Source: Raillietiella orientalis (Eukaryota). From it: 64,000 nucleotides of DNA. The stretch lies in assembly GCA_036172245.1 (NCBI GenBank), contig JAYWIR010000019.1, positions 806,001 through 870,000 of the forward strand. Reading direction: 5' to 3'. Under the pieces are notes generated by a model, which was given only the letters and a program-made list of their open reading frames with translations, did no database searches and was not told where the DNA came from. Positions 3,595 through 60,249 of the stretch are shown here, piece after piece. Positions within the stretch are counted from its first letter, which is position 1, and every line of letters begins with the position of its first letter. The translations under genes were made by a program, and so were the position numbers.

Positions 3595-4700
3595 ATCGCC
3601 CTTTGAGGTTTGATTACCTCCTCCAACAGCCGTTTCCTAACTGGGGATTGACAGATAGGGAGGATAGGGTATCTCAGCGGGCCGAGAGCTAGCCAGAGGC
3701 CATGTGTCGCCTGCTGTGATCTTAGTAAGTCGGCGACGACTCCACCGACCACCATAATTTCAAATTTTGATCAATTGCGCCGCTGCTGTTCCAGACCCCA
3801 CCCCCAGACGGTAGGCTCCTGTACGTGAGTGCCCAGAAATCTGCCCCGCCAACCGGCCGCGAACCACAATTGGTTCGTAGCCGAGGTGCTGACCCTGAAG
3901 CCGTACGTGCCATCGCGCCTATGTCCTGGCAGGGTCTCATAAGCGAAATGCTCGGCACACTGGAGTACATCAATACGAGACACCATCCTAGCCAGGACAG
4001 GCGCCTCGTGCGTGTACTCAGCTGCGCTCCACATCCTGAAGCGCCAATCGGTCCGCGAAGTGGCTATCCTATATACGGCTCGCGACAAGTCAACACAGTC
4101 AAGTCCAGTGTTATACTTGTTGTATCACATGCCAGCATGGGTACGCTTACCGGTGACCGTGGTGTGCCCGGTCTCAAGCTCGTTGCATTGCCACGACCAG
4201 CCCAAGGTGGTTTGGCCGAGACAGGCGCAAACTGTCATCTGAGCACCCGTTGCCGGGTTGTTGCCGCCGTGGATGATCCGCCCTTCGAATCCCTTCGTTC
4301 CAAGGTAGTCAGCAGCATTTACAAGTTCATCCGTAATACCGCTCCCCGCCTTCCATTCTTCGAACAGTCGGCGGAGGTACCCCGCTCGGGACAACCTACC
4401 AAGTCCACTCTCCCAGAGAGCATTGACTATACTTCCGGGAGGCTCTGTGTTAAAAACGTTGTAGGTGTAACCCGCAACGAACACAGCCAGCTCGGCGTAC
4501 TTGGTCCATCGTCCTAGAAATACGATGGGATTCCTCCGAGCATCACCTCTAGCCAACGGGACCTGGTCAAAACAGCTCACCGCCCCCTGGTGGCCGTAGT
4601 CCCACTTTGCTGCCTCCCTTGCCTTTAACGGCGGTGTTTCCAGGCATTGCTGCCCGTCAACAACCGCAAAGGCAAGCGAAACACAACAAGGAACCCTTTC
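3595..4700 (-). pseudogene. ~360-codon non-TE reading frame (2 internal TGA) fused in frame to the ORF1 C-terminus; possible viral origin
   Basis: ORFs 4125-4580, 3771-4088 and 3117-3755 share one frame, separated only by TGA at 4125-4127 and 3771-3773; W/Y/G-rich globular composition; no TE motifs. Confidence 0.55.
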
Positions 4701-4749: not shown

Positions 4750-5067
4750 CCAGGCATATGTCGGCTGCCAGGTGGCCTCATCTTCCAGAAGACGCAAGGA
4801 ACGAGATCTCCGGCATTCAACGCCGGTTCTGAAGGAAAGGAAGGAACAGCAGAAGCGCTTTGGCTTCCCGTGTCCCCTCCCCTCCTCATATTTTTATTTA
4901 TATATATTTTTTATACATGTAGTTGTGGTCTCCTCCCTCCGGTTCCGGATATTCGGATTTACCGACCTGCGTGCCGGGGAGTCCTTCGTTTTTCTGTGGC
5001 CTTTATCCGGGAACCCTGCGCCCGGGTAGTTTAGCAATAAACGCCCCGACGCAGCCGGGTAAGAACC
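4750..5067 (+). mobile_element. 3' terminal fragment of L1/Tx1-type element
   Basis: ...WPH...EISGIQRRF* is shared with 26190-26248; ends AATAAACGCCCCGACGCAGCCGGGTAAGAA. Confidence 0.8.
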
Positions 5068-5599
5068 AGCCAGGCACCCCATTTCTTTCATAAGCAAAAG
5101 ATTTAGGGATGGGCTTCCGGTAGCAAGGACAGTCGCCTAAGGCAAGGAAACCGAATCCGTCCGTCCTACGCAGGTGGCGCGGATGCAGCAGCAGTCGTTT
5201 GCTGCCAGCAGTTCACCTCAGGGCGAGGAAGGCCGGAAGACACCGAGAAAACGCCCACAGCTTCGCACGGAGTCCCAGTCACCAGAGCTGCATCTGTGGC
5301 TCGATGGTTTCCGACTCCAAGGTGCCCAAGTCAGCGCTCTGGTGTAGCGCTGCAAAGTCCAGACTCCACAAAGTCTAGGCCGGGTCCGTCACGAAAGAGT
5401 TGGTAGTGTCGTGCCACGACGTCAACAAGCTGTTCTCTGCTCCTTAGGAAAATCTCGTATAGAGATTGCTGTGCACCACAAGGCTACCCTAAAGCCCACC
5501 GACGAGGTGGGAGTTATCATGCACCATCACGGGAAGAACAAAACTCTTCGGGGGCTGGAAGACGAGAGAGCTGGCAAATGCTGCCACTCGTGATATGGC

Positions 5600-6632
5600 G
5601 ATGGGGCTTCTTCGGTGGGCAGAACTTCGTCTTGCCTCCGAGGAACTCATGGTGCCTCCCATTGTGTGGATGGTTCGTTTTCCACCTTGCTTAGAAATAT
5701 GCCTTCCTGCTCTTCATTCACTAGGGTGAATGAAGAGCTGCATAGGGCTCTTACCAGCGGCCAGACGCCGAAGTGGCAAGTCTCCTGCCGGATCTCAGGA
5801 CGAGAGAAATTGTTAAACGGTTGGACCAAGGGAGAACTGGCGGATGCCACGACCCCGAGTGCCCTCCCGCGAGGACTTGCAAGATAGGGCGAGCTGCTCG
5901 GCATCCCGACGGATGACTTGAAGTGGCCCCGGTTTTAATTGGAGCCAGGATTCTCCCCCTCAAGTGGCAAGAGTCGGCGCTGCTGACGTTGCATTGGGGC
6001 CTGCCTTGCAACGCGCGCTGCTTCCACTGGACCTGGGGGAGAGTAAATCCTGAGTGTGCCCGGTGTGGGGTGAGGGAATCGCTCCCCCACCTTCTTGTTG
6101 ACTGTGCTGCTCTCCGACCCCTGCGGGAACGGTTTGGGACGACCCTAGGGCTCCCTACGGGCAGCGCGCCCAGAGACGCTTTCCGCCTCTTCGTGCGGGA
6201 CGCCCTGCAGCCAGCCGCAGTCGTGGCAGCATTATGCTGCATCCGTGGCATCGTGGCGGCGTGGAGTGATACACGCGACGAAGATGTGGACCAGAACGAG
6301 AGGGACGTCATCCCGTATGCTGTTCGCTTCCTGACGAGAGCTTCTGGATGGCCCCAGCTGGGTACAATTCGGATGGACTTAAAGGGCTTCCTTCGAAGGA
6401 TGGGCCCTCCTCCCAGTGCAGAGTGATCCCTTCCCAGCCCTCCAACTTCTTTTTGTTTTCCTTACTTTTTATCCTTCTTTTTGTTTTCTCCCCCATCCCT
6501 TCCACTGCCGAGGAGAGCCACGTCGGGCTGCGTCCCGGCAGGTCCGGTGTTGTGTGGCCGTTAGTGGGGCCTGGTACCACGTTTGTGGAATGTTTTTTTT
6601 AATAAACGCCCCGGGATTACCCGGGTGGAAAT
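5600..6632 (+). mobile_element. L1/Tx1-type ORF2 C-terminus (CCHC) + 3' UTR
   Basis: ORF 5923-6426 LHWGLPCN...ECARCGVRESLPHLLVDC; terminal AATAAA-hairpin at 6601-6630. Confidence 0.9.
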
Positions 6633-6649
6633 CACTAGGGTGAACGTGT

Positions 6650-12409: not shown

Positions 12410-12912
12410 ATTCACATCGGAACCTACAGATCTTGGCAATGATAACCTCATAATAGGCAAAACTCCTTCACCTGAGATCTCACGCCAACGCTCAATAGTT
12501 GGCCCAATTGAAAAGTAACAATTTATCCCCGAATCTAAGGGGATAGAGTTCGCTGATGAACTCATTAAGGTGATCTGGAGGAGAATGAAGAATTTTACCG
12601 GCACTTGCCCGCATCCGAAACCGGATGCAGAGGACTCCTCCCGGGGACCAGTGATCCCATCCCTTCCCTCCCCACCCCATAAAACTTTGTTCCTCCTGGC
12701 GTTTTTGTTTTTTGTTCTTTTTTTTCTGGTTTTCCCGCTCCCTCCGCCAGTAAAGAGGACCTCACAGACCTGCGGGTCGTTAAGGACAAGTGCAACAAGA
12801 CAGCCAGAACCATGTGTTCTGACTGAAAAAATGCCCCAAAGACTGGACTTAATTATAACATTCCCTGTAGTATTTTAAAAATAAAAGTCCCGGCTTATCC
12901 GGGTGAAGAACC
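12410..12912 (+). mobile_element. 3' end of L1/Tx1-type element
   Basis: Homologous to 55600-56072; ends AATAAAAGTCCCGGCTTATCCGGGTGAAGAA. Confidence 0.85.
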
Positions 12913-12949
12913 TCTGGGTTCTCCTAACTCATCCATTGTTCCCAATACT

Positions 12950-25689: not shown

Positions 25690-26466
25690 TTAGTGAGTTC
25701 GAGCAATGCCAGCACTCCTCGCAGTCGTGCCAAGGGTCTCCCACGGGGGTGCGAATTCTTGAGTGTGCCCCCCGAAAAACTCGTTGTCTCTCCTTCGTGC
25801 GTGGACACGTCTGTGTTCCCCCTCCAACGAAAACAGGACGCGCTTCTGCTGGTTCACTGAGGCTTCCGTTGCAACCAGCGAGCGAACCTGGTTTCCGGGG
25901 GAGTTGCGCACTCGAACTGCGGAAGGTGCGAAGCAACGGAATCCCTTCCGCACCCACTGTTTGCCTGCGGTGTCCCCCAAAGGCTGAAACGGAGGTTATC
26001 TTCAGCTCTCCTGCATTCGGGGAGCACCTCCATGGACTTGGTGGGCCGCTTCTTCTCGCGAGGTGCGGTCGGCGCTAACGATGTGTTGCAGCCGCGCCAT
26101 CCTCACGGCCTGTCGCGTGTCGCAGTTGCAGGCGGCCCCAACAGAGGTCAACAGGACTGCAGCCTGCAACATAAGCATGAATTCTTGGTGGCCTCACATC
26201 AACGAGCAAGTGAGGAAGGAGATCTCCGGCATTCAACGCCGGTTCTGAGAAGGAGGAACGGCCAAAGTCAAAGACCCCTGTCTCTTACCAATCCCATATA
26301 TTTTTGTGTTTGTTTATCGTCCCCTCCCTCCCCTTCCGGACTCAGAGTATGCCTATACTGCGTGTCAGGAAGCCCTCCCCTGAATTTCTGTTCCCACTGA
26401 CTGGAAATTTTGTCCCCATAGGATTTCCATTTTTAATAAACGACCTGGCGCAACCGGGTAAGAAAG
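25690..26466. mobile_element. Two opposed L1/Tx1-type C-terminal fragments (minus ~25690-26030; plus ~26030-26466 with 3' end)
   Basis: Minus HRRVHARRR..FFGGHTQEFAP matches 42210-42290; plus EISGIQRRF* and AATAAACGACCTGGCGCAACCGGGTAAGAA. Confidence 0.75.
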
Positions 26467-26479
26467 CAATGCCGGTGCT

Positions 26480-31699: not shown

Positions 31700-32190
31700 C
31701 TTAAAAACGGGTAGGAAGTAATGAAGAAATGAAATGACGGTATAGTTGAGGACAGAGACTGGAGTTCTGTGAGTTCAAATGTCCATTCTCAAGACACGTT
31801 GGAAAGCCCGGAACGAGTACAATAAGATGATACCAAATACATGAAAGTGCAAGAGCGCGGTTGTTGCTGTCAGCCATCCCTTTCTTCCAAACCAGGCACT
31901 GAATGCCGAAAATCGCCGTTCTTGACACTTCTAGATGCTGTCCTCCATCAAACGCAGTCGTGCTGGCGGGTGACCTCCATTGGCTGCGTCTGCACCTCCG
32001 ACCGGTGGTGCGAATGCAACCCATCGTGCCGATAGCTGCGTGCAATCGGAGACTGCCTCTCCCTCACGAGAATCGCCGCAGAAAGTCATGGACGATGTTG
32101 TCCTAGCGCTAGAAAACTGATGACAGTTTGTTGGCGCTGGCAACGCAGTCGAGGAGCAGGTGCCGGATCCCTTCCCAGGACCTGCTTGTA
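31700..32190 (-). mobile_element. L1/Tx1-type C-terminal fragment
   Basis: AAIGTMGCIR motif, homologous to 57100-57140 and 6880-6910. Confidence 0.65.
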
Positions 32191-32351
32191 AAATCAATTA
32201 AACCAAAAGTACGATTCACTTTTCCAGTAGGAAACCCTCTATGGTTGCCTCGAGAGCAGACCACGAGCAGGGCAAACCATTCAAGTTGAGACTACTGCAG
32301 GAGATCCCCTGATGAACATCCTGAAGAACTTCCTTTACTGTCCTCAGCTTA

Positions 32352-33272
32352 CAGCCCGCGTCGGAGGCCTTGTGGTTTAGGCTTCCGCGTGTGGCACCAC
32401 GCGCCGCGGGTTCGAATACTCCTGTAGAAACTGACGCCACTGCGCCGTTGGGTACTGAGTTTCTCCTGAAATGGCGCTGGTGGGCCGAGACATTCGGGCG
32501 TGGCACCGGCGGTGGATTAAGCCGGAGGCCCCCGATGAAGGCCGGAACAATGGGAGTCTACTTTCGGGTCCTCCCAGGAATCAAGGAATGGGGAGTTCTC
32601 CCTCCTGTCGTGCAACGGAGAGCGGACCCCCCCTTCACCGGGGGACCCCTCCGGTTTCAAGATGGAGCAGGAGCCCTCACGGGCACCTCTCCAGTTGTTT
32701 TAAGGGGCGGACCCCTTTTTTGCAGGGGTCCCTTCGAGTCGTCGCCTCTTCACAGAGTGCACAAGGAAGCAAGAGAGAGCGATTCCCTGCGGGAAGCTGC
32801 AGCGCCCCTTCTGAGTTTCGGAAGCGTCCCTTCGGGGTTCTCTTCAGAGGAGTGAACAGGAGCCGTTCCCTTGCGGGCTCCCTCCGGAGAAGAAATTCCT
32901 ACAAGCGGATCCTTTCCGGGTTCCCTTAGGAGAAGTTGAAATGGAGAGGACCACTCCCCTTTCGGGTTCCGGTGGTCCCTCCGGAGAGAATGAGGAAGGA
33001 GATTCCCTTCGGGGTTCCCCTTCGGAGACAACCAGGGTGGGAGGTGCGATCCCCCCCGTCCGGGAGGGATCCCTCCCCAAGCGTGAGAGGAACGGAGTCC
33101 GAGCCCTTCCTGGATTCATAGGGCGGACCTCCATCCCGGGGTGCCCCCTATCCTGAAGAATTACACGCCCGCCTACGGGTTGCCGCGGGCGGAGGGGCGT
33201 GGAAACAAAACAGTGTGTGTTAATGTTTAAAAAGAGCCACGTGCGCCGCGAGGCACGCGACCGGCTCTGAGG
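32352..33272 (+). mobile_element. SINE-like insertion with tRNA-derived head, hairpin-rich body and 16-bp TSD
   Basis: TACTGTCCTCAGCTTA at 32336-32351 and 33273-33288; A-box-like AGGCCTTGTGG and B-box-like GGTTCGAATAC (32409-32419); terminal hairpin 33234-33267. Confidence 0.7.
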
Positions 33273-34099
33273 TACTGTCCTCAGCTTAGAGGTCAGCTTC
33301 ATGCCTGCATAAAGTTAACTGCGAGGACGCCCAGTCTAATTCAGCGTAACCTAACCTAACGTGCCACCCTATTCTCTAGTTGGGCTTGCCGGTATTTCCT
33401 CTGTCTTACCTCAGTCGCATTGCTTGAAGTTGTTTCTACGCAACTTTTACACTCTTTGCTGGATTCCGGTTCTAAGACTGCAACCGCAGCTGTTCTATCA
33501 CTCCATTCCTGAGTCTGCAGACGATACCACTGTGGCAGCGCCGTGCACGGCTCCAACACAATCGTCCACATACCTTCTGGAAATCCTCATATTTCAAGTT
33601 TTCAGAAGGAAGCCCACTTCAAAGCCGACGAGAAGACATCCGGGGGTTCTCTTTTGAAGATGGTGCCCACAAACAAATGCATATGCTGAAACGTAGTCAA
33701 CACGCTGTACAAATTAATACGTGTTCTACAGAGAAACAGTGTTGTGCAGTTGAGTCCGTCGATATATTGTAATGTGGAGTTGAATTCCTTTTTCTTAAAT
33801 AATAAAAATAAATAAGGGAATTATGATCGATTTATTTCATCAGTTGTATCGACAAGAGCATCACTGCTCTCATAACGTGCTTCGAGGCAATCTTTCGGGT
33901 CAGACTCCTGGTTTGAATAGCCACCAGGGACTGAAGCCCGTGGAAAATTGGCAGCTCGCAGTGAGTGGAGTTGATAATTCTAACACGTCAGTGATTATCC
34001 TATTGATCTTGAAAGATATTTAAAACTCAAAAATGTGGCTTTTGCATTGTGAAAGTGAATGTTCACTCTCTCGTCCATTCACGTCCTCGACGGGCGTAC

Positions 34100-36300
34100 T
34101 CTCCAAAACGCTGCACATACATAACGCGACGCTGTCACGGAGTGAGCATTCCATACTCATTTCCAAACACCAACGTAAGAACGCAAACGTTAAAATCGCT
34201 GTAATTCAAGTTGACAATAAGTTTCGATGGTTCACAAGAACATACGAGAATAATTTCACGTTTTTTCCGCGTTAACACGAGGCTGATGGCAAACTCCACA
34301 GCAGCTTTCATCTCCTGTCGCATCAGAGAGATCGCTGAACGGCGCTTTTGGGTTTCGGCGAACAAACGCAATCTGCAGCGTCGAACGGCTCGCCGGTCAT
34401 CACGGCGACGTGCTCCTTACTTTCATTTAAGAGCAATGAGAAAAACGACCGTGCATGACGTCAGTAGCAGAATGCTTGTGCTTCAAAGAGAAACAGAAAG
34501 CTCTTACACCCTTGGAGATAAAAATGAACAATTCACTTGTTCCGGTCCTCCAAAGACGAAAACAGTTACATCCGTTGTCTGACCTCCATAAGTCTGGGAA
34601 CAACTTGCCAAATTCCTTAGAGTGAATTAAAACTCCCCGTCACTCCCACAGAGCAACTGGTCGGTTCCGAAGTCACCCCCTCAGCGGGTGCCCACATTTC
34701 CATGCACATCGCCTCTTGCGTGATAGGAGAAACCAAGGGGATCAGACCGAGAAAGCACTTCCCGTCCAAAGCACCAAATTTCAGTTCACAGTCAGTCGGT
34801 CCCTGTTTCCCGACAAGTGGCGCTTCCGCATTCACCCCGACTGAAGGAACTGCTACCAGCAAGTGGCACTGGAATGCACACTTTCCCAATGCAGGAAGCA
34901 CTCACGACGCGCGGAAAGGTGAGCTTAGCGCCTTGAAAACGCAACGGGAGGCAATTCACCCGCTCAACTCATCTCCCACCTACGTGAGACCTATCCAAGG
35001 AAGCCAACGGTTTGCTCCCACTCCTGCCAGAAGCATTGCCTGCGCCTTACTTCAACTTGGGCAAGCATTCCTGCCAACAGGGGTTCTTTTGCGCCCGTCG
35101 CTCTGACTGCTATCCTCTCGTCCCAGAAATCCCCCGAATCTTCCCACCTTGCTAGAAATTTCCCCTTTTGCAGAAAAGATATCGTGAGCGGAGGACACAT
35201 TGGAAATACGCCTCCACTTCCCGCCTTGCAAGCACACCTCGCTATCGGGCGGGAATTCCGGGAACGAAACCCGCGTAACCATCCACGGTCATCTGCGCAC
35301 GTCCGAAAGTCCGCTGATTCCCGGGTGAGTGTCGGATGCGCACACTTCTGGCCGTCAGCAGTGACGACGAGGATGCCGCGTCGTACGCCCATGGCTTTTC
35401 CGTCGCCATGCAGCAACGGGAAGCCGTGGTTTCCCCCACGGCGAAAGGCCGCAGGACGCGAACCGTGGTACGGAAGCATCTTCCCAAGCAAGCATCTGGC
35501 GAAACGTATCTCTTTCCATTCCTTCTCTCGAGAATATCTTCCGAAGAGGCGCATAGGTGCCAAGCACCGCGTACGCATGCGCGGAAGTTTGCAGGCCGTT
35601 GTCCAGCCAGGCTTTTCCAAATCGCTTGATTGGAGTACGGGGAACTGAAGAAATTCTCACCGAACGCATCTCCGGAAGCATGGTTCCGCCAAAGATCTCG
35701 TGGGAGCAGTCGCTGTTGCGTTGGGCAGCACTGGAAGCACACGTCCGATGAACTGCCAGGGAAGAACGTACTGACCTCGGAAGGGATGCTGCGGATTCGG
35801 TCGCTGCACAACTGCAGCCAGCGGGGCAAGTGGCTCATGAGCAGTGCGCGGAATGGCAAAGTGCTTTGGACGAAAGCTTGCCAACTCGGAACGTGCGTGG
35901 TCTGCGCAAAAGTTCCAATCGCATGTCCTAAGGTGCATCTGTTTGGCGTCGAAGGGATGCCCGCAAAACGTGGCTCCGCTGCTGGTGCAAGAGCAATGTA
36001 TCAAATACGTCACGTGGTTTTCACACCATGGTACTGTGCACATGTGAAAGAGAAGGCCGCCATATCGATTGGTGCGAAGTGGGAATGCTGGAACGGTCGG
36101 TTTCCAAAGCAGCGTCTGCTAGCGCACCATAGCAACTACGCAGAGACTGCATTCTCAAGACGCATTGCATTCTCAAAGTTGCTCACGTCCCTTCCGAATG
36201 TTTGAAACCAAGGACAGCAGAAAAACCGCCTATATTCCAGCAGCTTTGGGTGACTTCCCAACATATGCTCTGAGTATTCCGAAGTCCAGTGCCGCATCTC
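34100..36300 (+). pseudogene. Heavily degraded L1-type ORF2 (RT to CCHC)
   Basis: Remnants TKGIRP, WKYASTSRLASTPRYRAG, CVVCAK...HLFG in the expected order. Confidence 0.5.
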
Positions 36301-38535
36301 AGAGAGGTGTATGATCACCGACTGGACACATGGAAGAAAATGCAATGATTGCATTACTGCTGTGTTTCCAGGAATTCCAGAAGCCACTTAAACCTCTCAC
36401 ATTCAAGTCTTTGCATGAAATACATTTCCTTCCCCTACTCGTGCAAAAGAGGACAGGGTTGCTAATTATCTTGAGAATTGCACAAGCCTTGCCATTTGCT
36501 CGACACCAGACAGTCTCAACGATCTTCAAGTACTGAAGACCAGACGAATTCATCTTAGTTCTGCTACTGAAATTCACTGTCTACTGTTTGATTGTCCTCA
36601 TCCAGACGTGTTTTGTTTTCTTATCCTACGCAACCGAGAATTCAAGTCGCTCCGATTCCTCGGAAAAGTTATGCATTCCACGATGTGCTCACTGATGAAA
36701 CATAAACGGCCAGTCGAGCGATAAGCTCTGTTCACAGTGTTTTCTAATGTCTTCTTGTCCATTGTCTCTTCCCAGTAATCCCCTCGCTCATGCTGCCTTA
36801 TTGCAATTCATCTTCGTTCCCGCACTCTCTTTCTGCATAACACCATCGCATGCCATCGTTCACGTGGTCGCACTCTACGTGGAAGGCGAAGTAACCAATC
36901 TTCCGTTTTCCATACGTGTTGACGATAGCAGACTGCCAGCATGTACTCCAAAAGTCCATTTCTTCATCCTTCTACTTCTACTGCTTGCATTTCTATTCAG
37001 CTGGCCTTGAAACCGCCATTCCATCTTTTCAGACCACCGTACTGCTTTCGTTCCCTAGCAACGTTTAATCACGAATTCTCATGTGTGACCTCACGGTAAC
37101 TACGGAGATTCTTTCATCTGCGTCCTTTCCCCTTCCCATCACAACTGCGTTCCAGCGGATGAGCGTTTCCAGCGAGAAAGTTCAGGTTGGATAACGTTGA
37201 GAACACTGAGGAAAGCAGGCAATGCCCATAGCTCGAAGCATAACTCTTATCTGTTGAAGGTGGAAGTCTTCCCATTTATGAGTTACGTTTTCTGGAGAAC
37301 ACGGATCTCGTTTTCCCACTCTGCGGGCATGGGGCGGCGCGCTGCCAAAGACCACCCAAGCGAAAGCCCTCACCAGCTAGAAGACACGTTCCCACGTTTT
37401 GCGGGCATCCCTTCGACGCCAAACAGATGCACCTTAGGACATGCGATTGGAACTTTTGCGCAGACCACGCACGTTCCGAGTTGGCAAGCTTTCGTCCAAA
37501 GCACTTTGCCATTCCGCGCACTGCTCATGAGCCACTTGCCCCGCTGGCTGCAGTTGTGCAGCGACCGAATCCGCAGCATCCCTTCCGAGGTCAGTACGTT
37601 CTTCCCTGGCAGTTCATCGGACGTGTGCTTCCAGTGCTGCCCAACGCAACAGCGACTGCTCCCACGAGATCTTTGGCGGAACCATGCTTCCGGAGATGCG
37701 TTCGGTGAGAATTTCTTCAGTTCCCCGTACTCCAATCAAGCGATTTGGAAAAGCCTGGCTGGACAACGGCCTGCAAACTTCCGCGCATGCGTACGCGGTG
37801 CTTGGCACCTATGCGCCTCTTCGGAAGATATTCTCGAGAGAAGGAATGGAAAGAGATACGTTTCGCCAGATGCTTGCTTGGGAAGATGCTTCCGTACCAC
37901 GGTTCGCGTCCTGCGGCCTTTCGCCGTGGGGGAAACCACGGCTTCCCGTTGCTGCATGGCGACGGAAAAGCCATGGGCGTACGACGCGGCATCCTCGTCG
38001 TCACTGCTGACGGCCAGAAGTGTGCGCATCCGACACTCACCCGGGAATCAGCGGACTTTCGGACGTGCGCAGATGACCGTGGATGGTTACGCGGGTTTCG
38101 TTCCCGGAATTCCCGCCCGATAGCGAGGTGTGCTTGCAAGGCGGGAAGTGGAGGCGTATTTCCAATGTGTCCTCCGCTCACGATATCTTTTCTGCAAAAG
38201 GGGAAATTTCTAGCAAGGTGGGAAGATTCGGGGGATTTCTGGGACGAGAGGATAGCAGTCAGAGCGACGGGCGCAAAAGAACCCCTGTTGGCAGGAATGC
38301 TTGCCCAAGTTGAAGTAAGGCGCAGGCAATGCTTCTGGCAGGAGTGGGAGCAAACCGTTGGCTTCCTTGGATAGGTCTCACGTAGGTGGAAGATGAGTTG
38401 AGCGGGTGAATTGCCTCCCGTTGCGTTTTCAAGGCGCTAAGCTCACCTTTCCGCGCGTCGTGAGTGCTTCCTGCATTGGGAAAGTGTGCATTCCAGTGCC
38501 ACTTGCTGGTAGCAGTTCCTTCAGTCGGGGTGAAT
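34830..38535. repeat. 1144-bp inverted repeat (34830-35973 / 37392-38535), 1418-bp spacer
   Basis: Mirror-image identical ORF translations; end coordinates sum to 73365; I noticed a single mismatch near 34975/38390. Confidence 0.95.
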
Positions 38536-41899: not shown

Positions 41900-42510
41900 T
41901 AGAGTGGCCGTCGTGCGAGAACCATTGGTGAAGGAGCATTGCATGCGTCGAGAAGCGGAAGATGACGCCGATAGCAGTGTCTCTCTAATGCAAGAGCGCT
42001 GAAGACAGTCTTCGCCACGAAAAGCAGCAAAAGCAGCAAAATCCACAGTCTTTGGAAGGCACCGCAGTCGAAAAGCAGGTGTCAGAGCGATTCCGCTGCT
42101 CCGCATTTCTTACAGTGCAGGGTGGCAACTTTCTTGGAAACTAGGTAGACGCGATGATTGCAATAAAAGCTTTGATGCAACAGCAAAACCAAGCTCTGTT
42201 TCCACTGAAGAGGAAACACAGACGTGTGCACGCACGACAGAGGAAGCACAGGTTCTTCGGAGAGCACATTCAGAAGTTCGCACCAAGAATCAGCGCTTCC
42301 ACCCTCGCTTCTTTCCCTATTTATTTATTGTCTTCTTTATCCATTTCCTACTATTCAGAAGCCGGCATGCGCGCCGCCGGTAATCCCGATGAATCGTCCC
42401 TTTTCTCAAGGTTTTCCTTGTCGTTTCGAGGGCTTACCCTTCTTCCCTTGAAACTTGTGGTTTGTTTCGTTTAAGCAAAATGAATGTCCCGGGTTGACCG
42501 GGTGATAACC
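41900..42510 (+). mobile_element. L1/Tx1-type 3' end
   Basis: C-terminus homologous to 25750-25840 (minus); ends AATGAATGTCCCGGGTTGACCGGGTGATAA. Confidence 0.7.
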
Positions 42511-42639
42511 TCTTCAACTTGAAAAGCAAACGGATGTGCGTTTTTGCCCTTCCGTTTGCAGTTCAGTTTTCCTTGTTTACCGATGTGCCCGTGGTAAAGT
42601 TTACGTTGCATATGGCGCAGAGGAAAAAACAACAAAAAC

Positions 42640-50586: not shown

Positions 50587-52708
50587 TTCTCACTTCGTTG
50601 CGCCGGGGCGTTTATTCTTCCGAATAAAACGAGAGTCTGTGGCTTAACTGGTGGTCCAGCTACGCACGAATAAACAACATTAAGCCTGCCGGGTCACCGG
50701 CTCGCAGTTCGGTACGGTCGACCACGACAACAAAGGAAGTCGGGACAAAACAAAAAGATATAACGAACACTAAAAAAATATATATAAAAACAAGACCTGG
50801 GGGGCACGGGAAGGGATCACAGTCTGCTGCGGAGCCAATTCATCCTTTCTGGGATGCCGGCAAGCTGTTCTTGGATTGGTGAATCCAGATGGGTCCATCC
50901 TGTCGCCGTCCTCATAAATTCGCCTGCGCATTGGACGGCACCCTTATCGCTTGGTCCTCCCGTTGGCTTGCTTCAAGCAGCGACGATCCCGCGAAAGCAG
51001 CACAGAGCTGCTAACGAGGTCGCAGGCCGAAGGGCGTCGGCAACGAAGAGGGCTTTCAATGCGTCCCTGGGGTTGCCGCAGGGGATTCCGGTTGCCGCGG
51101 CGAAGCGGTTCCAAAGGGGCCCAATAGCAACACAATCTATAAGGGGGTAGGGGAGGAACTCCCGTTCTCCACAACTCAAACAATTAGGTTTTACAGTTCC
51201 CCAGGTCCAATGGTGTCGGCGGGCGTTTCAGGGGAGTCCCCAATGAAGCAACAGTAGCGCCGACTCCTGCCATTTTAAAAAGAGGGTTGAAGTGTTCATG
51301 AGCACCGGGGGTCACTTCAAATCTTCCGGCGGAACTTCTAGCAGCTCACCCCAGCGCAAAAGTCCAATAGGGGTGGTAATCCGGGCCGCAGTATCGCAGA
51401 GAACCCCCGTTTTCCATTCCCCGATCTTTTTCTCCGTACCGGAGATTTTCGCGTCCACTTCCCATGCCGCCGCACTATTGCTGTCCAGATGGTCCACGAG
51501 GGAAGACAGCATTGCAGCGAGGGAAGTTTTCCTTGCCCACGCTCGTCTTTCGGGGTTCTCCAGGATCTCCCGGAGCGTGAGGCGTTCGTTGCGCGCAAAC
51601 AGTTGTCTGCGATATTGCTCGGCGCGTTGCTCGTTACTCCTCGCCCACGTGTAAACGGTTTCCTGGAGCCAGGCAGTTCCGTTAACGGGGCGACAAAAGA
51701 GCCATCCCGCGTTCATCCTCATCAGATCAGTCATCCTCCACCGCTGCAAACCGCAGTGGGCGACTTGGCGGCGACGACACAGTGCAAGGAAGGATCACAG
51801 TCCCACCTTGCCGGTGGCCACTTTGACGAGGAGACTTGCAGGCTCGCACCAGCTCCTGCTCCAATACTTCGCCACTAGGGCGAGTAACCGGAACTGGAGC
51901 TGGAGCTCCAGCCGCTCCAGCGTCAGGAGGCCGAGACCGCCGTCCCGACCCGTAGCGCTCAAGTCCACAAGCCGGAACCGGGCCCTTCCTCTGCCCCACA
52001 GGGCAATCCTTAGAGGGTCCTTCGTCCGCTTTTTTTGTCTCTGCAGTGGGGGACAAACAAAAAGTAGGGAATGGACGAGGGGGAGCGCGAACGCGTTCCA
52101 AACCGCGGCCCGTTCAGGCAGGAAAAACCTGCCGCCTCGGAACGGGTCGATCGCCGTCTGTACCTTCTGAAGGCAGCTGGACCACGCATCCGAAGGGAGA
52201 TAATCCCTCATCGGTACACCGAGGTACTTGAAGTACCTCACCGTGGGGATCCCCAAACGGACCCAGTTCTGCTGCCCTGCCCACGCCGCACCAACTGGTA
52301 TCACGGACGACTTCGCTCTGTTCACCGTTAATCCTGTTCCCCGACTCAGCAGGTCAAAGAACTCCTCGACCGCCGAAGCCGGGGTGGACATAGGGAGCAG
52401 CAGCAGAAGGTCGTCCGCGTACGCTGAAACGGCCGGCGTACCGGGGCAGTCGTGCGGCAGGTGCGCCTGAGTTTACCTGTACGCTCTCAGTACCAACTCG
52501 AAGTAGGTACTGAAGAGCAAGGGACTCAGGCTGTCTCCCTGCCGTATCTCACGCCGCACCGGCACGCCGTGCACGGTTTGCCCGCTGAAGAAAACGTTGA
52601 TAAGCGCGTCGCGCCAGCTGGAGCGCAGGTAGGCCAACAAAGAGGCCGGGAAGCCCAAGCGTTCCAGAAGCTCCAACAGGAGATTCTGGTCGACGCAGTC
52701 GAATGCTT
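50587..52708 (-). mobile_element. L1/Tx1-type RT-CCHC-3' UTR
   Basis: AFDCVDQ, RQGDSLSPLLF, AYADD, KYLGVP, RDGGLG, LHWGLP; 3' AATAAACGCCCCGGCGCAAC...TGAGAA. Confidence 0.93.
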
Positions 52709-52719
52709 TGTGCCTGTAC

Positions 52720-53235
52720 GCAAGAACGCCTCCCGAGTGGGATGTCTCACAACTCCTGCTCCCAGAAGGTGCTCCAGCGATCGGGGAGGAGGAGAAAAAG
52801 TTTCTCGACTAGCCATTCACGATGGGCGAGATCATCTCGGCCATCGGAAAGCTCAAGAGGCGCAAGGCTCCAGGGGAGGACGGCCTGCCCGCGGAGTTTT
52901 ATCAAACCTTCGCGGCTGAGCTAACCACCCTGGTACATCAACTCACCTTGCTGATACGCGAGACAGGTGACGTTCCCGCCTCGTTTTGTTCGGAAAAGGT
53001 GCGGCTCCTCCCTAAGGAAGGGGATCTGAGGAGCATGAACAACTGGCGTCCCATCACAGAGGCGGAGCAGAGCGTTTTGGCAGAGCGTAAGGTTTGGGCA
53101 GAGCGTTTGGGACGGGTTGCAAACGTTTTCATTAGCCCGGAACAGACATGTGCTGTTCCCGGGCGAAGCATGGAGGCGAACCTATTCCACGCTTCCACAT
53201 GGTTAGAGCTCCAACAAGGAAAGGCTTTATTGAGC
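52720..53235 (+). pseudogene. Inverted RT N-terminal segment (probable 5' inversion of the 50587-52708 element)
   Basis: KAPGEDGLPAEFY, WRPIT, EQTCAVPGRSMEAN. Confidence 0.88.
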
Positions 53236-53239
53236 AACC

Positions 53240-53690
53240 GGAATTCTGGTGAGGCCGTCGCAACTTTTCCTCGTTTGCCGACCCCTGGGCACAGGTCGGC
53301 GTCGATGAAGACATGGTCGATGCTGCGGGCCATTCCCTTAGCGTCCACCAACAAGTTGCGCGTGCGCATGGCAGCGCACAACTCGTTGGCCGTGCGTTCC
53401 TGTGCTTCGGGCTCACCTGACAGCAGACGGAGATTAAAATCCCCCTCCATTAGGTGAGCATTCCGCACGTTCGTTTCTGCCAGCCAATCGCGCTTTAGCC
53501 TTAACTTCTCCCTGCCTGCGATTCGATTGCAGGAGATTTGCCACTTCGGCGTCCGGCTGCTATGAAGCGCCCTTCTCAGGAAGGGCATCTCCGTAGCGAG
53601 GGGTGTTCTCTCCGCCCACGTGCAGCTCGCGGGAAATTCCAGTATTTCCCTCAGAGTGCAGCGGGCGTATATGCCGGCCCGCACGCAGTA
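53240..53690 (-). pseudogene. Fused APE fragment and post-RT fragment of L1/Tx1-type elements
   Basis: GDFNLRLLSG...IDHVFID (53240-53500); LREILE...PKWQISC..IAGREKL (53500-53690). Confidence 0.8.
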
Positions 53691-56072
53691 CCTCGCCAAA
53701 CTCTGGGCTGAGCTGCTGGGATGGGTAGCGGAATCCGTGGTCAGTCCGGAACAGACTTCGGCTGTTCCCGGACGAACCATGGAGGCCAACCTGTTCCTCG
53801 CCAGCACCTTTTGGCAGTTGCAACAACGCTAGGCGCAGCTAGGTCGGGAGAGTCCTGGACTCTCCACTGACCAAGGGGAAGGAAGCCAGGGGGAAGATGC
53901 GGCTCCCGGAGCCCTTGCGGTCGCACTCGATTAGCGAGAAGCTTTACACTGCGTCGACCAGGAACTCCCTCTGGAACTCTTGAAACGCATGGGATTTCCG
54001 GCCGACTTCCTGCCTACCTGCGCTCCTGCTGGCGCTTCGCGTTAATTAATATCAATTTCAGCGGCCGGCACGTGTACGGCGTGCCGGTTCGTCGCGGCAT
54101 CCGGCAGGGTGACAGCCTGAGTCCCCTGCTTTTCAGCATCTACTTTCAGTTGGTGCTGAGAGCATACAGGGAGACTTTGGCAACCCTGCCGAGCTCGTGT
54201 CCCGGCACGCCTGCCGTGTCGGCCTATGCCGACGACCTCCTGCCTCTGCTTCCTGGGTCCACACCGGCATCGGCGCTCGATGATTTCTTCAAGTTGCTGC
54301 GCCGTGGGACATGCCTCGAGGTGAACAGGACGAAGTCGTCGATCATCTTCTCTGACTCGTCGCAGGCAGGACGGTCGGACCGGATCCTCTTGAGGATCCC
54401 CACGGGCGGGTACACCAAGTACCTTGGCGTTCCGTTGGGGGAATTCTGCATTGCAGAAGCCTGGTCCGACCGTCTTCAAAAGGTGGAGTTAGCGATCGGC
54501 CCGTTCCGGGACGGCAAGTTTTACTTGCAGGAACCGGCCGCGGTGTGGAACGCCTTTGCGGCCCCCCTCCTTCACCCCCTACTTTTTGTGTGTTCCGCCC
54601 CTCCCCAAATTAGGACAAGGACAAAGGGCCTCATTAGAAACACCCTCTGGGACAATCGGAGGCCCCGCGTCCGGCTTAAAGACTTGTGGGCTCCACGCAG
54701 GGACGGTGGACTCCTGACGTTGGAGCGCATGGAGCGACAGCTCCAATTTAGAAAACTTGCCCTTGTGGCAAAGTTTTGGACAGCACCCTGGTGTGCTCCA
54801 TTGAAACTCCTCGCCCACAGGGCAACCGGCTGCCACGGATTGACCTCAATCCTGGTAGCCAACGACCGTAGCCTGAACCATTGTGGGTTTTAGCTACGCG
54901 ATCTGGTTGCCCTGGTGAGCGAGAATCCGTGTATCTCCTGCATCCCCGCGGACTGGACTACCTGGCTCCAGGAGTCCGTTTCCGCGTGGGCCAAAATTAG
55001 CGGCTGCAGCGATGAGGACTTCTCCTGCCTCCGTAGAGGCAGGTACGCTGGTCAGCCCCTGCGGGAGATCGTTTCCAACCCACAAAAGCTTTTCTGGGCT
55101 TCATTCACCTCCCTTGCCCCCGTGCTGCCCTCACTCAGAGAAGCCAGGGACAGCCAAGAGGGGGCTTCTTACGAAGTGTCCTGCCTCATCGGAGGCAGGA
55201 AAAAACTGATCAAGGCGTGGACGTCCCGGGAACTAGAGGACGCTACAACCCCGAGTGTCCCGCCAAATGGAATTGTGCGCTGGGGCGAGCTGCTCGGCAT
55301 GCCTCCGGAGGAGGTGAAGTGGCCCCCGGCGTATTGGGACAGTGACACCCTCCCTTGGATTGACAGGAGACGGACTGCTTGTGCTCCATTGGGGACTTTT
55401 GAGCAGAGCACGCCTGTCTCACTAGACATTGGGGAGATTGGATGCCCATTGTACAGAATGTGGGGAAAGGGAGACCTTCCCCCACTTACTAATCGAATGT
55501 GTTGGCCTCCGCCACGCGTGGGATCGACTCTCGTCGGCCATAAACGTAGCGGTGGGCGACCCTAAAAATATTTTTCGTCTCCTCCTGATGCGGAACTGCG
55601 TGTCAGGTGCCGCGTGTGTTGAAGTTCTCTGCTGCATACGAGGAATATTGAACAAGTGGAACGCGTCGATAAGAGGCCGCAGTAGTCGGAATGCCATCCA
55701 CTGGGCGGTCATCTCCATGGAGAAGGCTTCCCGTTGGCGCCGGCTAAGGAAAATTCTGCCAGCACTTGTCTGTATCCAGAACCAGATGCAGAGGCCCCCC
55801 ACGGCGTACTGTAATCCCTTCCCTTCCCTCCCATCCCCCATAAACATTATCCTCCAAGGGTTTTCCTTTTTTTTTTGTTTTTTCTCTTTTTCCCGTCCCC
55901 TTCGCCAGTGGAGAGGACGACCTTACCGGCATACTGGTCGGAAAGGACAGGTGCATAAAACAGTATGAACAATGTGTTCTGACTGGAACACAAATACAGA
56001 CGTCAGGACTATATTATAAAATAGATAATTGTACAATTTTTAATAATAAAAGCCCCGGCTTACCAGGGTGAA
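53690..56072 (+). mobile_element. 5'-truncated L1/Tx1-type element (RT, CCHC, 3' UTR)
   Basis: GIRQGDSLSPLLF, AYADD, KYLGVP, CTECGERETFPHLLIEC; ends AATAAAAGCCCCGGCTTACCAGGGTGAAGA. Confidence 0.95.
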
Positions 56073-56075
56073 GAT

Positions 56076-56201
56076 CCACTGCCGAGGAGAGTCACACCGG
56101 GCTGCGTCCCAGCAGGTCCGGTGTTGTGTGGCCATTAGTGGGGCCTCGTACCACGTTCTGAAGAGTTTTTTCAATAAACGCTCCGGCGTACCCGGGTGAC
56201 A
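56076..56201 (+). mobile_element. ~125-bp 3' UTR-only copy related to 6501-6630
   Basis: CCACTGCCGAGGAGAG...GGGCTGCGTCCC...GTACCACGTT shared; ends AATAAACGCTCCGGCGTACCCGGGTGACAA. Confidence 0.85.
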
Positions 56202-58620
56202 ACGCCAAATCCGTGGACCGGGTCAGGCGGTCCATGGGGAACTGCTCGCAGAACTCCCAGACCGATTCCTTAAAAAGCTCCCAGTCCTGGAGTCTTTGGA
56301 GTGTGACGCCTCTCAGGAATTCGCGAAGATGTTCCTTCGCACCTGAGAGTCGCGTCAAGTCCCCCGGCAGACACCACGCCCTGGATGGCGGCCCCTTGTC
56401 GCGCGGGAGCATCTCGAAAATTAACCGGGAATGGTCCGACAGCGTCGGCGCAAGCTTCCCCCGTTTGCCGACCCGTGAACACAGGTCAGCGTCGAGCAAG
56501 ACGTGGTCGATGCTGTGGACCATTCCCCTCTCACCCGCAAACAAGTTGCGCGCGCGCATGGCGGCGCACAACTCGTTCATCGCGTTCTCCTGTGCTTGGA
56601 GCTAACCTGATAGCAGGCATTGAAGTTTATCACTTGGTCACGCCGGGGTGTTTATTTATAATAAACCGGTCAGGGACAATGTCCCTAACCAACACAACGA
56701 CAGAGAGCAAAGAGAAGTTACCGACACGCAGGCCGAGTAAACAAACCGCTCGCAACATGGGAGGAGTAAGGGGATAACATAAACAACATAAACGGGAGGG
56801 AAGGGTAACGGATCTTTGGCGAGGCTCCGTACTCACGGGGATTCAAACAAGGAGCACCTGGAATGTTACGGGGACTAAGGGGACGAATGTGGAAAAAAAA
56901 AAGAAACTAACTCATGCAGGGTGGGGCAAGGATTGCCGGGTGGGCCACTGCGGAGCGTGTGAAAACCGGCGGTGTATATCGGCGAGATCCCTTCTTGACT
57001 CCTGACAAATGAAGCCATCTGGCGGTTGCTTCTATGTAGGAGGATGCTTTGCCGATCACCTCTTGGTGCTGCCCGTTGATTAACAGCGCCTGAAGGGCTG
57101 ACACTATGGCGCGTATGCAACCGATGGTTGCAATCCTGGCACTTGTGGACAGCCCGCTCGGCGTGAAGAATCGTCGCAAGTCTCTTGCGGTGTCCACAGG
57201 ATGCAAGAGTGCTGTTGTTAGCCTCCTCCAGGGTCCTTGTAGGACACCGCAGTCCAGAAGTAGGTGCGGGTTCTACTCCGTTGTCCCGCAGACGCAAGTC
57301 TCCCGGAGACACGATGCCGACGCTGGTTGCACTAAAAAACCCCAGTGACCAAGAACAGCACGGCTTGTTTTCATACGAGGGGGAGCAGCGAACTGTCTAG
57401 AAACTGTGGAGGAACTACAAGTTCTTCGGGGTTGACACCAAGTTCCACACCCCACCGAAAGAGTCCCTTCGCAGTAACACGAGGAGTGGAGGCGTCCGCC
57501 AACTCACTCGTCTTTCAGGCGCCAAGGAGTTTGGTTTTTCCCGCTATCGTGCAGGAAACCTCCCACCTCGCCGGTTGGCAACTGTCGCTTCTTGCCCTGA
57601 GGGTAGACAGCGCTGGGGAGAGAGGCGTAGCAGGCAAGATAGAAAATTTCACCTCGTGCTGCAGTATCTCTTCCAAAGGTCGCGGAAGAAGATGGCAGGA
57701 GGCGAAGATCTTCATGGAGCATTCCTTGGAACGCCGCCCAGGATTCAACAGACTCCTGCCGCCAAGCGTCGAAGTTCATTGGACGGCAGGAGATCCACGA
57801 GTGGGCGTATAGAAGTTCGGCCAATTGCCGCAAGGAATAGCCGAAACCTCGCTTCCTGTATTAGGTGCCCGGAAACAGCCAGAGCAGTCCTCCGCTGCCG
57901 GTGCATCTCCTCAGGAGGATGCGTGCAGGCACACACGGGGGGCTGTCCACAGCTGGGCATACAGTGCCAGCAGTCGGAACTGCACCTGCAGTCCGATTCG
58001 CTCCATTGTCAGGATACCCAAACCAGCATCCCGACGTAGAGCCGTCAAGTCTTTCAGGAGGATCCTGGATCTCGCCGGACCCCAAAAAGCGTTCCTGAGC
58101 AGGCGTTGAGCCCGCTGTTTTGGTAGATTGAAGTTTATCACCCGGTCACGCCGGGGCAGGTAGATTGAAGTCTCCCCCTATCAGGTGAGCCTTCCACACG
58201 TTCGTGTCAGCCAGCCAGTCGCGCTTCAGGGTTTCCAGCAACACTGTGCTTTCGCGGTAACCCTGCTTGCCGATGGGGGCGAACACGTTTGTGACGATCA
58301 GTTCGATCGAGTCGGACCACCTGAGAATCAGCTGGCCGACCCGACCGTCGTCATCAAAGCGCACGCCCTTCACGGCCGCGTCGACGGCTGGCTTCACGAA
58401 GGACGCGACCCCACAGGAGTTGCGGACGCCGTATTGCCGGTACAACCGACCCCCCGCGATCGTCTCGATCTCCTGGACGTCTGCCGCGGTGATCATGTGG
58501 ATCTCCTGCAACAGGGCCAGGTCGAACTCTCGCAGGGTGTCGGCCGTGTCCCGTCTGCTGCCGTCGTCGCGCAGCCCGTTGACATTCCTACAGGCCACGC
58601 GGATACGACGGCGACAGGCG
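56202..58620 (-). mobile_element. APE domain (58159-58620 and 56202-56626) split at GDFN by a 1.5-kb 3' fragment (56627-58121) and a 24-bp hairpin insert (58135-58158)
   Basis: CRNVNGL, LQEIH, GGDFN on one side; IDHVLLD, SDH on the other; GGTAGATTGAAGT duplicated at 58122-58134 and 58159-58171. Confidence 0.85.
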
Positions 58621-60249
58621 AACCCAGGGTTTACTCCTGGGAAAGTGGCGCTGCGGCGTCCACCACCTGTTGGGGCGGGACGCTAGGAGTATGAGGGAGT
58701 GAAGCTTCGGGCACCTGATCCCCCTCCTGAATGGGTGCCTGTGTGTCCGGCGGCTCCCACGAACGCACCCTCGTGTAGCGCGGACAGTGTTCAAAGAGAT
58801 TCGTGACCTCCCTCATTAGGATGCGGACGGTTCTTCAGCATTCCTTGTGCATCGAAAAAAGGATCTGCGACGACGCGGTGGTGCCGACGTGATGCGCTTT
58901 TCCGTCGTCAGTCTCTCTAGCGTCATCAAGACAGAGCGCTGCGCGTCACCGAGGACAACATTGACACTGGCGAAGGAGCTCGGTGGACGCCGAGGGAGAG
59001 GTGGTGATGGGACTCTGAAAGAGGATCCTCGAAGGCATCGGCGGCATCTCTGGCCTCTCGGAAGGCTGCGCAGGCTGCCGGCTGCCAAGCAGCACCTTTC
59101 GTGGCGGGTGATTCCGTAGCCCTTCGGATACTGAGCCGGGCTCAATGAGGACGCCGTCCGGGTAAAGGGGCTGTCCCTCTCAGCGCACCTGGAGGGAGTC
59201 GGAGCCGACGCGGCGTCTCCAGCAAAGGGTGCGCGTCGTGACGGCTTACATCGCAGAAAAGGGGAGCAGAAAAGACCAGCTGACGATGGAGAAGCTCGGG
59301 CACTCAGAAGACTCCTGTCTCTGCGGATAGGAGAACGGGAAATTCTGCGTGGGGAGCGTCCCGGACGGGGGCAGTGGCAGGTCGAGAGAGGCAGCACCCC
59401 CGTGACACGAGGGATGCTGATAGAAACATCCGAAGGTTCAAGCCCCCGGGAAGCCACCTCACCATTGACCAAAGACGCTAATAGTCCTCTTCCTCGAGTG
59501 AAATCCTGGATTGAAAGACTGGTAGAGAATGGAGAATTGGAATCCATGGAAACCAGAATTCACTCCGGAATCAAAGCATGCCGCATTTCCCGGATCCATG
59601 CGACCTCAACCAGAGGATTGTGGGATAAAGAAAAAAATCCAGAAGGAGTGGTGACTCCTGAACGTACGCACGCTGGGTGCGCTCCCTCGGCGACGTGAGT
59701 CCGGGAGGGAAATCCCTGCGAAATCCCTGTCGAAAGACCTATCAGGTGCTTCAACATTGAGAGCCCGCAACTTCGCCCATCTTATGATGATGCTCCTGAT
59801 GTTGAGGGGGCGGTAGGGCGTACCATGGTGTTGTCGAGGAACTTTTTTTTTCCTTCGAACATTCCTGTTAAAATCTCTGTTTTCATTTTCTTCTGCATGC
59901 CATTCAGCACCTTCAGCGCAGTCCAGCCCTGGAGCAGCGTCAGAACATGGGAAAACGTAGAGCTGGGTTACTGTCCCCACAGGCTTTCCAGAGTTCATCT
60001 CAGCTATTACCTGTCCAATGTTTCAGTCGGGAGTTACTAAGAATGCTTCCGTGGTAATGCATTAGGAGGTCATCCTCAGCATCTGGTGGTAAGTCGCTCC
60101 TACACATCTCTCTGCCAACCGCTAACAGTTCACGTTGCGGATCCCGTGGCTCTTGGCGGCCTCGTGCAGTGCGTCGTCTTGGGTTCATATGTTTCTTCAT
60201 TTCCTCATGGATGCTGCCTCTGATGATCAGGTGCTACTCATTGGTAGCT

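Follow-up and report, generated by a model that had tools for sequence, protein, structure and literature searches.

Elements mobilized by long interspersed nuclear elements (LINEs) are flanked by target-site duplications (TSDs) of 7–20 bp, according to the excerpted account of the Sadhu elements (PMC2848041). In the so-called stringent LINEs and their short interspersed nuclear elements (SINEs), the 3′ end is formed by a stem–loop with conserved flanks and a stem whose letters may vary, and the excerpt describing them places L1-clade examples in plants and in a green alga (PMC3747384). Here, we describe an insert of 921 bp located at positions 32352–33272 (+ strand) of a 64,000-nucleotide stretch of Raillietiella orientalis DNA (GCA_036172245.1, contig JAYWIR010000019.1, forward-strand positions 806,001–870,000), and this whole stretch is referred to as the window. 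The insert is probably a young member of a LINE-dependent retroposon family that is non-coding and non-autonomous and of the type without long terminal repeats (non-LTR). It is bracketed by a perfect TSD, it belongs to a multicopy family with shared ends, it has no coding capacity, and the L1-type LINEs around it have tails laid out like its own.

Sequence reading and a repeat search both place TACTGTCCTCAGCTTA on either side of the insert, at 32336–32351 on the left and at 33273–33288 on the right (+ strand), with identity at 16 of 16 positions; the repeat reaches 19 nt if one mismatch is allowed. As a perfect 16-mer repeated inside ∼1.2 kb has a chance expectation of ∼2 × 10⁻⁴ by our own arithmetic, the bracket is not a product of chance. 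The original prediction of a 16-bp direct repeat around ∼920 bp was therefore confirmed, and the length of the repeat falls within the ∼7–20 bp of LINE-dependent retroposons. The insert has a GC content of 0.615, compared with 0.487 and 0.437 in the two 1-kb flanks, its CpG observed/expected ratio is 0.82, and its termini read CAGCCC...CTGAGG. The other insertion classes considered were solo LTRs, DNA transposons such as miniature inverted-repeat transposable elements (MITEs), Helitrons, and templated insertions that involve no transposon. In their favor, a direct repeat by itself names no mechanism, and a GC hairpin near the 3′ end is also a trait of Helitrons. However, integrases leave TSDs of 4–6 bp, most transposases leave 2–10 bp, and Helitrons leave none, and the 16-bp TSD is unlike all of these. 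Solo LTRs combine TG..CA ends with a TSD of 4–6 bp, Helitrons have TC..CTRR ends, and MITEs carry terminal inverted repeats, whereas the ends of the insert are neither TG..CA nor TC..CTRR between A and T, and the repeat search found no terminal inverted repeat for it among the four inverted pairs. Helitron, MITE, and solo LTR were rejected on these ends, the 16-bp TSD, and the absence of a terminal inverted repeat, and an origin from any of these other insertion classes is hardly credible.

The insert has no coding capacity. Pfam returned no family for any of its six open reading frames (ORFs) of at least 110 amino acids, and tblastn with six LINE proteins gave no match between 30011 and 34800. 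The exhaustive search against 1.84 billion proteins, which covered the longest of the six ORFs (176 amino acids), produced a single match with an E value of 5 × 10⁻⁹. This match, to a Gly/Ala-rich stretch of 26 amino acids that occurs five times over in an unrelated 1010-amino acid repeat protein, was taken as spurious. A match to the coding region of a transposable element, which the original prediction had raised, was thus not found by Pfam or tblastn, and a protein-coding transposable element fragment was rejected in the absence of any Pfam, tblastn, or genuine protein match. The idea that the insert might be a retrocopied structured noncoding RNA, satellite RNA, or ribozyme was not supported with respect to known families: Rfam gave no match at E ≤ 1 over 31800–33800 on both strands and none in the window when gathering scores were applied, and a known noncoding RNA or ribozyme was rejected on the former result.

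Within the window, the element is single copy by blastn. Its relatives were found in two public sequencing runs of other samples, here called X1 and X2, whose contigs were aligned to 31900–33700. The two runs listed as containing some of its words had small shares (0.10 and 0.04), and no RNA run was among them. Cover was present in 16 of 30 bins, all of them on the element. X1 provided 100 contigs, of which two have an identity of at least 99%, 15 lie at 95 to 99%, 38 at 90 to 95%, and 45 below 90%; 73 of the 100 are only partly on the stretch, and a share of 0.51 continues into unlike sequence. X2 provided one contig of 955 nt over 32370–33276, in which 66 letters differ and 54 positions are gaps. 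This contig starts and stops at the ends of the element, and past the 3′ end it continues with TAGCGAACC and then A8. The element is a member of a repeated family with shared ends, and the non-autonomous retroposon reading fits because the copies in other samples share the ends of the element. The proposal of a non-autonomous family consequently stood, as a TSD-flanked, non-coding repeat, and the concern that the element might be single copy was met by the copies in X1 and X2. Two patterns taken from the head of the element had no match in public metagenome contigs and none in public genome contigs. The family may already be catalogued in Repbase, Dfam, or SINEBase.

The same copies inform the orientation and the exact boundary of the element. 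The A-run and hairpin at its right end, together with the A8 in the loose end of the X2 contig, point to the + orientation. The alignments of the X1 and X2 copies extend to 33276, inside the right TSD, so two to four bases at the start of this TSD copy may be part of the element itself, a microhomology that would fit priming by this means. The copies also bear on the idea that the insert arose by processed retrocopying, from a structured long noncoding RNA gene of the cell or from a ribosomal DNA (rDNA) spacer transcript, rather than a member of a dedicated mobile family. Such a retrocopy could be non-coding, GC-rich, hairpin-rich, and flanked by a TSD, and the A-run in the loose end of X2 resembles that of a polyadenylated transcript. 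However, X1 holds 100 contigs at 80 to 99% identity with differing internal lengths and 15 joints, the X2 contig stops at the element ends as interspersed repeats do, with no gene or rDNA unit beyond, and Rfam, rRNA included, gave no match. We regard a cellular retrocopy as a very remote prospect.

The center of the element is occupied by a degenerate repeat array (32600–33130, + strand) with a short GC hairpin in each unit, often closed by TTCG, and the length of this array varies between copies. The repeat search grouped the units into families D1 to D3 with spacings of 41–54 and 83–94 nt, and autocorrelation peaks reached z ∼5 at 94–95 nt and z ∼4 at both 149 and 177 nt, with a 95th-percentile shuffle maximum of 3.45. 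Tandem Repeats Finder reported no tandem array within the element at a score of at least 30, the internal repeats being too diverged. Fifteen joints in the X1 contigs skip 52–213 nt within 32420–33101, which implies that the copies differ in the number of central units.

All of the hairpins and tetraloops listed by the original prediction were located in the sequence: the stems GGACCCC/GGGGTCC at 32709–32731, GGAGCC/GGCTCC at 32859–32881, GGACCAC/GTGGTCC at 32948–32978, and GATCCC/GGGATC at 33048–33072, and the CCC-TTCG-GGG loops at 32828 and 33005. The minimum free energy (MFE) of the predicted fold is −421.9 kcal/mol on the + strand and −408.3 kcal/mol on the − strand, with z scores of −3.19 and −3.38, respectively, and none of 60 dinucleotide shuffles folded as well on either strand. 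The folding tool's own 20 shuffles gave z scores of −2.56 (+) and −2.80 (−). Moreover, the element contains 16 hairpin rows with a perfect stem of at least 5 bp, compared with 7.6 ± 3.2 (maximum 18) in 300 shuffles. Nine 921-nt control segments of similar GC content from the same window had z scores of −0.5, −2.28, 0.13, −0.75, −0.28, −1.53, −11.86, −8.46, and −5.39, so that the element folds better than six of the nine, while the three controls with extreme values contain inverted LINE copies. These predictions depict the element as moderately structured, equally on both strands, with a fold excess that consists of many short local GC hairpins and no long-range fold. The description of a highly structured RNA therefore holds insofar as the element beats its dinucleotide shuffles, but it overstates the case because the excess is equal on the two strands and smaller than in three of the nine controls.

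Two features hint at strand-specific structure. TTCG, which would form a stable UUCG loop in RNA, occurs nine times on the + strand of the element, whereas CGAA occurs once (254 versus 275 in the whole window), an excess in which the loops are located in duplicated units and are not independent events. In addition, both variants in the second hairpin of the head, at 32400 and 32404, are C>T changes that retain G:U pairs on the + strand. As a separate observation, inverted LINE copies that are 72% identical (51810–52708 and 53939–54830) make their region, with 52000–58900, fold far better than its shuffles, at z scores of −5 to −12 for 921-nt segments; fold z scores in a window this dense in transposable elements are dominated by inverted repeats and call for caution.

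The 3′ end of the element (33229–33272, + strand) comprises an A5 run (33229–33233), a predicted 13-bp hairpin with a GCGA loop (33233–33268), and a final GAGG. The hairpin has a predicted energy of −21.7 kcal/mol (z −2.32, with 6 of 200 shuffles as good), and the expected TAAAAA–hairpin–TGAG ending is present as described, in the form A5–hairpin–TGAGG. Ten L1-type tails in the 64 kb share the pattern AATAAA-NG-CCCGG-loop-CCGGG-TGA, and none of them has poly(A). The best match to the tail covariance model (R1), with 53.9 bits, is the tail AATAAA-AG-CCCGG-loop-CCGGG-TGA at 12875–12916 (+), which represents a possible partner class; it is accompanied by tails at 56040–56081 (+, 52.1 bits) and 6596–6638 (+, 49.3 bits), and the model places the remaining ones at 145–186 (−), 5031–5072 (+), 26430–26471 (+), 42474–42515 (+), 56168–56209 (+), 56620–56661 (−), and 58128–58169 (−). 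R1 was built from five tails (6596–6638, 12875–12916, 42474–42515, 56040–56081, and 56168–56209), which also share ∼10 more bases past the TGA, and it recovers the 10 tails at E ≤ 0.01. These LINE tails are possibly of a hairpin-ended, stringent L1-clade type.

The tail of the element follows the same order of parts as the LINE tails (A5-G, hairpin, and TGA), with a stem that is different and longer. R1 misses it even at E ≤ 10, and blastn finds no similarity to it in the window. The likeness therefore appears to be one of layout only, with no demonstrated homology, as judged from the sequences; of the earlier claim that the 3′ end mimics local L1-type ends, the A-rich/hairpin/TGA arrangement survived and a homologous relationship did not. 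A scan for an A-run, a perfect stem of at least 5 bp, and TGA gave 11 rows at ∼7 distinct sites (128 kb, both strands), with a mean of 2.1 rows in 20 shuffles. One of these sites falls exactly at the end of the TSD-bounded insert, and since such sites are few in the window, this position is unlikely to have arisen by chance. Elsewhere, at 56040–56209, two LINE tail motifs stand in tandem ∼128 bp apart, and the second unit of ∼125 bp (56075–56198) is 86% identical to 6501–6627. Either a LINE copy that is 5′-truncated to a very short length was inserted right where a second one ends, or two hairpin modules are present in one LINE 3′ untranslated region (UTR).

The tail and the array together raise the alternative of an internally deleted LINE, in which a 5′ UTR with tandem "monomer" repeats was joined to the 3′ UTR of a LINE family outside the window and the product was mobilized in trans by its parent. 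Some L1 families have tandem-repeat 5′ UTRs, of which the central degenerate units, variable in copy number, are reminiscent. The tail agrees with the local LINE tails in general layout, and the summed X1 depth is higher over the head and body than over the tail, as if these parts occurred in other elements too, although contig depth cannot rank parts. However, no LINE of the window is similar to the element by blastn at word size 7, and neither is the sequence upstream of the young ORF1 at 28354. Pfam and tblastn show no ORF remnant, the LINE-tail model does not match the tail, and the X2 contig stops at both ends of the element with no run-on into LINE sequence. A deleted LINE is accordingly quite improbable.

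The head of the element (32352–32440, + strand) contains two hairpins, GGAGGCCT/AGGCTTCC and GCGTGTG/CACGCGC, which are closed by a stem formed between 32353–32360 and 32405–32412. Its predicted fold is a three-way junction, not a cloverleaf, with an energy of −37.8 kcal/mol and a z score of −1.94 (5 of 200 shuffles folded as well). The original prediction had likened the first ∼70 nt to a tRNA, which would make the element a true tRNA-derived SINE transcribed by RNA polymerase III (Pol III), with a decayed tRNA carrying A and B boxes as its head, a long body, and a LINE-type tail. Several details are compatible with this proposal. At 32409–32419, 58 nt from the 5′ end, the B-box-like motif GGTTCGAATAC fits the B-box consensus at 10 of 11 positions and lies at about the place of the T loop in a tRNA. 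When the head alone (131 nt) was searched at E ≤ 10, a tRNA-clan model aligned with it end to end, including a 7-bp acceptor-like stem between GCGTCGG at 32358–32364 and CTGACGC at 32431–32437.

The resemblance to a tRNA does not extend further. ARAGORN found no tRNA gene across the window, and the Rfam search of the surrounding 2 kb gave no match at E ≤ 1. Among the tRNA-clan models, tRNA-Sec scores best on the head, with 13.9 bits (E = 2.1) where the gathering score is 47, and in this alignment, the anticodon arm is absent and the T stem is unpaired. One-mismatch B-boxes number 26 in the window compared with 29.5 in shuffles, which is the chance frequency, and a degenerate A-box pattern has nine matches in the window but none in the head. 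The tRNA-like head was therefore not upheld. The runs that would stop Pol III were examined as well, namely T4 at 32698–32701 and T6 at 32716–32721 (+ strand). The internal T6 terminator that had been predicted is present, one base away from the predicted position, but it is specific to this copy: in X2 and one X1 contig, it is broken by 32716 T>C and a G inserted behind 32719. The T4 run is similarly altered at 32700 and 32701 in X2 and in most or all X1 contigs. These interruptions in other copies count in favor of Pol III transcription. In contrast, usual SINEs and Pol III transcripts are well below 921 nt in length, and while tRNA-derived SINEs measure ∼80–600 bp and have no internal Pol III terminator, the insert measures 921 bp and contains both T4 and T6. 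A decayed tRNA origin retains a place among the explanations because the B-box-like motif is located at the T-loop position; overall, we consider the tRNA-derived SINE unlikely.

Several results weigh against a LINE-dependent retroposon family. The window holds one copy of the element, with no second TSD and no empty site seen there, and when the flanks were compared with the window by blastn, no further copy of the site without an insert came to light. X1 and X2 consist of contigs only, which show presence, shared boundaries, and diversity but neither copy number nor an empty site. The 14 flank bins (31900–32326 and 33303–33700) have a depth of 0 in both runs, which may reflect low coverage or another species. 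The summed X1 depth is lower over the last two bins of the element (7.0 and 4.7) than over the head (29–39), the reverse of what is expected of 5′-truncated LINE-type copies, with the caveat on contig depth noted above. This copy has neither poly(A) nor a 3′ simple repeat, and its tail escapes both R1 and blastn. In the LINE tails themselves, the 5-bp stem shows no compensatory change in 10 copies (paired in 92% of cells), and their structure is not proven for this reason. Finally, the two strands show the same excess of folding, which is surpassed by the three controls with inverted LINE copies.

With these points taken into account, the LINE-dependent, non-autonomous retroposon remains the probable explanation. 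In such a family, an RNA of ∼0.9 kb would be read from the + strand, and an L1-type LINE would provide the endonuclease and the reverse transcriptase for copying it at a staggered chromosomal nick by target-primed reverse transcription (TPRT), which would leave a TSD of 12–16 bp. The element has three parts: a conserved structured head, a degenerate hairpin array of variable length, and a tail made of an A-run, a stable GNRA-capped hairpin, and TGAGG(TA). The terminal hairpin, with its flanking A-run and TGA, may serve as the handle for a stringent LINE reverse transcriptase. We infer TPRT, the role of the hairpin, the partner LINE, and the transcribing polymerase from these features. A further and more doubtful proposal, which we advance tentatively, is that a hairpin-array RNA family of ∼0.9 kb parasitizes stringent L1-clade LINEs by 3′ layout alone, with the array as a functional module. 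Recognition would then rest on structure and not on inherited LINE sequence, and the UUCG-hairpin array might, for example, offer a surface on which the CCHC ORF1 protein binds or might stabilize the RNA.

The surroundings of the element are those of a eukaryotic transposable element graveyard. LINE domains are the only ones that Pfam recognizes among the 116 ORFs of the window (APE-type endonuclease, reverse transcriptase, CCHC knuckles, and a weak zf-RVT), and tblastn finds LINE pieces throughout. A pair of LINE copies in inverted orientation, 2380–3621 and 30011–28767, which contain a CCHC ORF1 and an endonuclease, is 99.2% identical over 1,245 bp, implying that LINE activity is recent. The similarity within this pair ends abruptly on both sides, and such shared internal boundaries are odd for 5′-truncated LINE copies. 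For the LINE reverse transcriptase, the closest public relative has 59% identity and the others have 25 to 35%. With the LINE endonuclease, one protein search returned mixed bacterial and fungal clusters and another returned no match. The CpG observed/expected ratio of the window is 0.89, which is not depleted. The host has the appearance of a eukaryote that is poorly sampled and shows no strong decay of CpG. Located 1.5 kb downstream of the element is an inverted repeat of 1,144 bp (34830–35973 and 37392–38535) with arms that are 99.9% identical and ∼1.4 kb apart, and Pfam recognizes none of its ORFs. A foldback element, an inverted duplication of recent origin, and an artifact of the assembly are all candidate explanations for it.

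The element defines a repeat family for masking and is usable as an insertion marker in a lineage with poorly sampled LINEs. The window also offers a compact test case, in which ten L1-type tails with a hairpin and TGA stand beside a non-coding element of the same layout and a different stem. This bears on whether ancestral L1-clade LINEs recognized a specific 3′ structure before some of them relaxed to poly(A), a question raised in the excerpted account of stringent LINEs (PMC3747384). Unless a partner LINE is found, the element is an ordinary kind of genomic parasite, unusually long and hairpin-rich, and it was most likely copied by the enzymes of the neighboring LINEs.

Among known systems, retrozymes and viroid-like circular RNA retroelements resemble the element in that a non-coding, base-paired RNA of about a kilobase is copied into the genome. 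Unlike retrozymes, however, the element has no match to hammerhead, HDV-like, twister, or other ribozymes in Rfam at E ≤ 1, and its 16-bp TSD and single, non-tandem copy point to a LINE-type insertion. The stringent SINE/LINE pairs are closer in several respects. As described in the available excerpt, the eel UnaSINE1/UnaL2 pair, the monocot L1-clade pairs, and the Chlamydomonas SINEX-3_CR/L1-1_CR pair include non-autonomous, TSD-flanked elements like the one studied here, and both end in a 3′ stem–loop with conserved flanking letters, not in bare poly(A) (PMC3747384). Likewise, the element lives among LINEs that have a tail stem–loop in the same position. Whereas the stringent pairs share a recognizable tail sequence in that account, the tail of the element is not matched by the local LINE-tail model. 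In addition, its head is not demonstrably a tRNA, and its 921 nt amount to 2 to 10 times the usual SINE length, in contrast to the SINEs of these pairs. Because of this head and this length, the element fails as a tRNA-derived SINE.

The Sadhu elements of Arabidopsis offer a parallel in size and content, since the excerpt at hand describes them as ∼900 bp long with no conserved ORF, as in the element, and as resembling neither tRNA nor 5S and lacking clear A and B boxes, to which the element may be likened (PMC2848041). Their TSDs of 7–18 bp bracket the 16 bp found here, and Sadhu is presumed in the same excerpt to be mobilized by LINEs. However, Sadhu is described there with a poly(A) end and with a CAATCGTTSC start and a polypyrimidine patch, and the element has neither; it is hairpin-ended and GC-rich and contains an internal hairpin-repeat array. 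The likeness drawn here is one of description. SVA elements, which are restricted to hominids, are assembled from Alu-like and HERV-K-derived parts and end in poly(A), and nothing suggests that they share ancestry with the element. The comparison lies instead in their type: in the partial account consulted, SVA is composite, non-coding, LINE-1-dependent, longer than a SINE, and equipped with variable central tandem repeats (PMC3287187), as the element appears to be. Our best reading by analogy is that the element resembles a SINE in lifestyle, while its architecture is nearer to that of Sadhu or SVA.

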